NCBI RefSeq assembly: GCF_009931435.1
Contig: NZ_CP043414.1
Length of the DNA: 64,000 nt
Source of the DNA: Escherichia coli
GTDB taxonomy: Bacteria > Pseudomonadota > Gammaproteobacteria > Enterobacterales > Enterobacteriaceae
Strand: one strand, 5' to 3'
The translations under genes and the position numbers were made by a program. This document shows positions 31,174-31,338 of the stretch, piece by piece. Under the pieces are notes generated by a model. The model was not told where the DNA came from, ran no database searches, and worked only from the letters and a program-made list of their open reading frames with translations. The number at the start of each line of letters is the position of its first letter. Position 1 is the stretch's first letter.

Positions 31174-31338
31174 TCACTCCACATCCTCCCTGCGTAACCC
31201 AATATCCCTCAACCGTTCATCACTCATCTGCTGTAACACGCGTCGGGTCTGCATTTGCCGCCGCCAACGCCTCACCGCCTGCCAGAGTTGCACCAGGCCG
31301 ATAAACGGCGCTTTAGCTCTGTTTTCGTGAAATTCCAT
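31174..31338 (-). CDS. yjiS: Small DUF1127 protein YjiS (54 aa)
   Basis: Manual minus-strand translation gives MEFHENRAKAPFIGLVQLWQAVRRWRRQMQTRRVLQQMSDERLRDIGLRREDVE; absent from ORF track (<60 aa). Confidence 0.7.
   Translation of the reverse strand: MEFHENRAKAPFIGLVQLWQAVRRWRRQMQTRRVLQQMSDERLRDIGLRREDVE

Follow-up and report, generated by a model that had tools for sequence, protein, structure and literature searches.

The window analysed here, a stretch of 64,000 nucleotides of Escherichia coli DNA (contig NZ_CP043414.1), carries on its minus strand, at positions 31174..31338, a reading frame of 54 codons followed by a TGA stop, the reverse-complement translation of which is MEFHENRAKAPFIGLVQLWQAVRRWRRQMQTRRVLQQMSDERLRDIGLRREDVE. 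From this translation, the Pfam match, the position of the gene in RefSeq and the dN/dS values, we identify the frame as yjiS, a gene call that we consider practically certain. On the opposite strand lies yjiR (31515..32927), encoding a 470-aa MocR-type regulator made of a GntR HTH domain and a class I/II aminotransferase fold (Pfam GntR and Aminotran_1_2). The two divergent genes are separated by a spacer of 176 nt (31339..31514), which holds both promoters and five TACAGA/TCTGTA boxes. Downstream of yjiS, again on the minus strand, there is a gene (29362..31110) resembling GmrSD, a family of type IV restriction enzymes, with GmrSD_C and DUF5655 domains and a match to the PADLOC model ‘Orf5’ at 5.7e-174. 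By the features annotated in the genomes that match best, the surroundings correspond to the hsdRMS-symE...yjiS-yjiR-mdtM-yjiN segment of the E. coli chromosome.

The gene yjiS is itself already known, being annotated in RefSeq, present in Pfam and studied experimentally. A previous reading of the window made from the sequence only had proposed a 54-aa minus-strand peptide of the DUF1127 family, with an Arg-rich core and a DIG motif, and our analysis bears it out on each of these points. The translation of 31174..31338 is identical to the peptide given there, and in an HMM search YjiS scored 50.2 bits on Pfam PF06568 (DUF1127), above the gathering score of 23.3 (E=2.1e-13), with residues 18-54 covering the full profile (positions 1-37 of 37). 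As for composition, 11 of the 54 residues are Arg (20%), with a pI of ~11.4 and a net charge of +4, and a DIGL motif is present at residues 45-48 (D45-I46-G47-L48). The peptide matched no NCBIfam model and no defence-system model in PADLOC, which was tested since restriction genes adjoin; a sequence search of the PDB retrieved no solved relative, its only match being noise (E=0.43).

The homologous 165-nt CDS in K-12 MG1655 is yjiS in RefSeq, and the same frame is so annotated in every full-length E. coli record that we sampled. The K-12 protein (b4341; WP_000394280.1) shares 53 of 54 residues with that of the window, the sole change being K44 in place of R44, the latter being the more frequent allele in the sampled genomes; length, Shine-Dalgarno site, start, divergent yjiR and 176-nt spacer are also the same, whereas downstream K-12 has yjiT where the window has the GmrSD-like gene, truncated at its 5' end. 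When 801 nt around the gene were compared by megablast with 5426 complete E. coli genomes, 4170 matched, and the RefSeq labels under the match were ‘yjiS: DUF1127 domain-containing protein’ and, adjoining it, ‘yjiR: PLP-dependent aminotransferase family protein’. When the query was reduced to the 165-nt gene, 4159 of the 5426 genomes matched, 3736 of them over the full length, at identities of 90-99%; yjiS is thus missing from ~23% of the complete genomes. The comparison extends beyond the species, the 54-codon frame being kept beside yjiR in Citrobacter and Klebsiella as well.

Overlapping frames, coding constraint and start codon

At the default threshold of 60 aa, the only ORF listed in 31120..31500 is one of 60 aa on the plus strand (31255..31437), with a TTG start, lying opposite codons 1-28 and the 5' leader of yjiS. 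By contrast, in a six-frame list with a 20-aa threshold, the maximal ORF on the yjiS strand spans 31174..31353 and reaches 59 aa, one codon short of the 60-aa cut-off, and this explains the absence of yjiS from the ORF track, an absence that the sequence-only reading had already remarked. That reading had also judged the plus-strand ORF to be probably spurious, and we agree. Taken as the sole listed ORF of at least 60 aa in the region, 31255..31437 might be thought to be the real gene, or else one of the other two antisense ORFs (31128..31304 and 31166..31330) might, with the minus-strand frame incidental, and it is true that the antisense frames remain open in most of the E. coli loci sampled; open antisense frames are, however, expected opposite a real gene. 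None of the three plus-strand ORFs overlapping yjiS matched a Pfam family above threshold, 31255..31437 giving only a low-complexity match that scored 15.4 bits where 25 were required. In three Escherichia loci (L008, L009 and L015) TTT stands in place of its TTG start, its frame is interrupted by an internal stop in strain 5735 of E. coli and by two stops each in Citrobacter and Klebsiella, and half of it falls in the yjiS leader and promoter; in the other two ORFs, too, starts are lost or stops gained among relatives. Moreover, the substitution pattern tracks the codon phase of the minus strand. We therefore give a plus-strand gene a negligible probability: these frames are shadow ORFs of the real one.

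The codon-level comparison was made on a set of CDSs including ten further Escherichia loci together with Citrobacter and Klebsiella loci. In all the loci extracted the CDS starts with ATG-GAA-TTT-CAC or a near variant, and the frame has 54 codons across genera (53 in one locus). Among 14 unique sequences the variable columns are distributed 25/18/39 over the three codon positions, and 11/2/19 in the DUF1127 half of the gene (codons 31-54), third positions predominating. Nei-Gojobori dN/dS against the window yjiS was 0.05-0.35 in 9 of 10 E. coli loci, the tenth having zero synonymous differences from the window and hence no ratio; a value of 0.69 was found at one Escherichia sp. locus, where it rests on only 11 differences. 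Against Citrobacter and Klebsiella dS is saturated, and the proteins are still 54 aa long and 66-74% identical. This comparison of codons shows that the 54-codon minus-strand frame is under purifying selection.

As to where translation begins, an AGGAGG Shine-Dalgarno sequence, read from the window on the minus strand, occupies 31345..31350, 6 nt upstream of the ATG at 31338. A GGAGG 5-7 nt upstream of the yjiS ATG is kept in Escherichia, Citrobacter and Klebsiella, and is degenerate in some metagenomic loci of a nine-sequence alignment. A second ATG, in frame and five codons further upstream (31351..31353, minus strand), opens the 59-aa ORF, and could yield a longer product (MRRQQ-MEFHEN...), versions of 58-59 aa being called in a few database entries (P0009 and P0016). 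This ATG, however, overlaps the very AGGAGG whose spacing suits initiation at 31338, lacks its own Shine-Dalgarno site, and is replaced by GCG in Citrobacter and by GTG in Klebsiella, whereas the ATG and the N-terminal MEFHEN of the 54-aa form are invariant across genera; RefSeq and the experimental papers also use 54 aa. Since the upstream ATG overlaps the Shine-Dalgarno sequence and is not conserved, and the motif at the 31338 ATG is, we take the latter as the real start, and regard production of the 59-aa form as very unlikely; the ATG at 31351..31353 is probably not a start.

The neighbourhood of yjiS

The gene that follows yjiS varies: K-12 has yjiT there, some strains have symE, and other genera a MarR/efflux operon. 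In the window, the GmrSD-like gene found in this place begins at profile position 104, so that its N-terminal DUF262 domain has lost approximately the first 100 residues; ~364 nt present in strain N96 are absent from the window, the junction being at ~31104-31117, ~60 nt below the yjiS stop. Judged from this truncation, the gene is probably inactive. Over 20000..44000, the best match among complete E. coli genomes was 97.9% identical over 21 kb, with a query coverage of 85%; no RefSeq complete genome was near-identical over this interval, and the hsd-yjiS region of the source strain therefore combines cassettes in an uncommon way.

In ~420 E. coli genomes only the 3' half of yjiS was found, with yjiR deleted. 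In E. coli FDAARGOS_1301, for example, the remnant (L010:1499-1591) corresponds to query positions 3-93 and is annotated as a 26-aa hypothetical protein, with an Rpn-family gene adjoining. These copies are the scar left by a recurrent deletion at the border of the restriction region.

Hence it may be asked whether the yjiS of the window is itself a decaying, non-functional remnant at the edge of a hypervariable restriction (‘immigration control’) region. The deletion junction only ~60 nt downstream of its stop would fit such decay, as would the ~420 genomes with the 3' half only and the ~23% of complete genomes without the gene. In the window, however, nothing is broken in the frame, the start codon, the Shine-Dalgarno sequence, the spacer boxes or yjiR, the only variant in the protein is the common R44, and dN/dS is well below 1, so that we consider decay highly improbable and yjiS, as found here, an intact gene.

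A permissive Rfam scan of 29000..33500 gave nothing credible over yjiS, two matches to archaeal snoRNAs (E 0.4-1) being attributed to chance. Just downstream of yjiR, at 33039..33120, the scan returned sub-threshold matches to ES036/CssrF (32.1 bits vs 37.6) and naRNA4/CssrE (31.4 vs 59.5), which probably mark REP-type repeats.

The yjiS-yjiR divergent spacer

The gene yjiR adjoins yjiS in every locus fetched from outside E. coli, and the length of the spacer between them is 176-177 nt in all nine loci compared, which come from Escherichia, Citrobacter, Klebsiella and three metagenomic enterobacterial contigs. Overall, the identity of the spacer to distant members is 61-69%; 78 of the 177 columns of the nine-sequence alignment are invariant, and they are concentrated in the five TACAGA/TCTGTA boxes (31393-31399, 31423-31429, 31469-31474, 31487-31493 and 31508-31513), which are themselves invariant in the nine loci. 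The invariant blocks read GCTGTAT, CCATACAGA, AACC..TACAGA, TTTTA, TCTGTATGTTAAA.AAAAG and TCTGTATT. The exact hexamer ATACAG was observed four times in the spacer, with 0.068 occurrences expected. The box at 31508-31513 sits between the Shine-Dalgarno site and the start codon of yjiR, and it may owe its conservation to this position.

In a genomic SELEX study, a peak of RpoD holoenzyme (RNA polymerase with sigma70) was located in the yjiS-yjiR spacer, and TTAACC-15-TAAAAG was proposed as the yjiS promoter (PMC3946193); in the window these elements are found at 31437-31432 and 31416-31411. A scan for consensus sigma-70 promoters and intrinsic terminators near yjiS found none, and the promoter would therefore be non-consensus or activator-dependent. 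The CTGTAT...ATACAG pair by the yjiR start was considered as a LexA box and ruled out, its CTG and CAG being 20 nt apart. In SOS boxes this spacing is 10 nt.

The array of boxes is a mildly new observation, made in addition to the identification of the gene. YjiR is listed among the E. coli regulators of unknown function (PMC9308461), and a comparative study has reported that the motifs of MocR regulators usually contain a conserved TGT or TGG (PMC5320631). On the basis of their conservation beside yjiR, we tentatively propose the five boxes as a candidate operator of YjiR, which would then control both yjiS and itself, with a PLP-linked amino compound as the signal; this is a possibility that we would not rate as probable.

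The YjiS protein and its proposed partners

In the YjiS sequence, an uncharged hydrophobic stretch (residues 10-22, APFIGLVQLWQAV) precedes an Arg cluster with a charge of +6 (residues 23-33), and the protein ends with a conserved C-terminal region, QQMSDERLRDIGLRR. In the alignment of 14 sequences R32, R33, L35, D45, G47, L48, R49 and R50 are invariant. The highest hydrophobic moment is at residues 14-28. AlphaFold2, run on this shallow alignment, predicted a single long helix at residues 13-45, with a pLDDT of ~81-84 over residues 11-30, a mean pLDDT of only 67.8 and a pTM of 0.33.

Two classes of allele were observed in E. coli at yjiS codons 23-30 (~31249-31272), RRWRRQMQ in the window and in K-12 and R(S/T)WWLKKQ in others. 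The second class, which we compared in the three loci lacking the antisense TTG start, is nearer to Citrobacter and Klebsiella (KRWHLRAQ and KKWWLQEQ). The nucleotide identity of yjiS within E. coli goes down to 90%, which seems a high divergence for a chromosomal gene. Recombination linked to the neighbouring hypervariable restriction region may account for this diversity.

What YjiS does can be approached through published experiments on its orthologues, from E. coli K-12 (98% identical to the window protein) and from Salmonella (less so), and it is from these that the mechanism proposed here is drawn. A yjiS mutant of E. coli shows an increase of the pstS transcript and faster phosphate uptake; the interaction of YjiS with PhoR was detected by two-hybrid assay, in one orientation only, and by Far-Western with purified proteins (Remme et al. 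2025, PMC12501420). In the same work, E. coli YjiS complemented an Agrobacterium triple DUF1127 mutant, and a model was put forward in which the basic small protein sits on the acidic, cytoplasmic charged region of PhoR and favours its PhoU-dependent phosphatase state; the binding site in that model comes from structure prediction, with no experiment. Salmonella YjiS is found in the inner-membrane fraction, from which high salt releases it, and inner-membrane proteins, the sensor kinase SsrA among them, are recovered together with it on purification (Venturini et al. 2025, PMC11707872). It also has an effect on motility genes and on escape from macrophages; single substitutions of Arg residues or in the DIGL motif do not abolish the Salmonella phenotype (PMC11707872).

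Taken together, these data would be consistent with YjiS acting on the cytoplasmic side of the inner membrane, as a peripheral modulator of sensor kinases whose target in E. coli is PhoR, a mechanism towards which we incline with some reserve. The short hydrophobic segment at the N-terminus would hold the protein peripherally on the cytoplasmic face of the membrane, and its positively charged helix would bind PhoR, probably at the acidic ‘charged region’. Binding would bias PhoR toward the phosphatase state and in this way damp the expression of pstS and the Pho regulon, and with it phosphate uptake; in Salmonella YjiS may contact SsrA too. The hydrophobic residues 10-22, the Arg cluster at 23-33 and the helix predicted, with modest confidence, at 13-45 fit this picture.

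The main rival explanation comes from Rhodobacter sphaeroides CcaF1, which like YjiS is Arg-rich and contains a DUF1127 domain. CcaF1 is described as binding RNA and influencing sRNA maturation (PMC8034643), and YjiS, with the same Pfam domain and an Arg-rich basic helix, might likewise be mainly an RNA-binding protein acting on the maturation or stability of RNA rather than on a sensor kinase. CcaF1 is a protein of 71 aa co-transcribed with an sRNA cluster, unlike the yjiS of the window, downstream of which the Rfam scan found no sRNA cluster. Furthermore, enterobacterial YjiS has no reported RNA interaction; it is localised at the membrane, has partners that are mostly inner-membrane proteins and interacts directly with PhoR when both are purified. 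An RNA-binding role for YjiS thus appears unlikely, and modulation of sensor kinases remains the reading that we prefer.

The known systems closest to this reading share some of its features. Salmonella Typhimurium YjiS, compared here by its published description (PMC11707872), resembles the protein of the window in its length of 54 aa, its DUF1127 domain, its Arg-rich core and its DIGL motif; a hydrophobic N-terminal helix, peripheral association with the inner membrane and interaction with a sensor kinase would be shared features as well. Unlike in E. coli, which has no SsrA/B, it is induced through SsrB and tied to the timing of SPI-2 virulence. The SDP1-3 proteins of Agrobacterium tumefaciens resemble YjiS in being small, Arg-rich DUF1127 proteins, whose binding to PhoR damps pst expression, although their identity to it is only ~24% (PMC12501420). 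Alphaproteobacteria have several DUF1127 paralogues, whereas E. coli has one, and the enterobacterial proteins form a separate clade. In principle YjiS would also recall MgrB and SafA, modulators of PhoQ, in that the balance of a histidine kinase between kinase and phosphatase is shifted by the binding of a protein of less than 70 aa; these, however, are unrelated in sequence, integral to the membrane and act on the periplasmic domain, whereas YjiS would be peripheral and cytoplasmic.

As a whole, the reading of the locus as an intact yjiS, starting at 31338, served by a promoter in the spacer and encoding a proposed modulator of membrane sensor kinases such as PhoR, is one that we hold with considerable confidence. 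Its first consequence concerns the quality of annotation: with a 60-aa threshold, a small protein that is real and has been studied by experiment goes unlisted, and a meaningless antisense ORF is promoted in its place. Few small proteins have, like YjiS, been proposed to tune a two-component sensor, in this case PhoR, and intact copies of yjiS are therefore worth annotating. The array of boxes beside yjiR, in turn, offers a testable lead for an E. coli transcription factor without a known target or ligand. If YjiR does bind these boxes, a signal from an amino compound would be coupled, via YjiS, to PhoR and phosphate signalling, and the strict pairing of yjiR with yjiS in Escherichia, Citrobacter and Klebsiella would reflect that of a regulator with its target.
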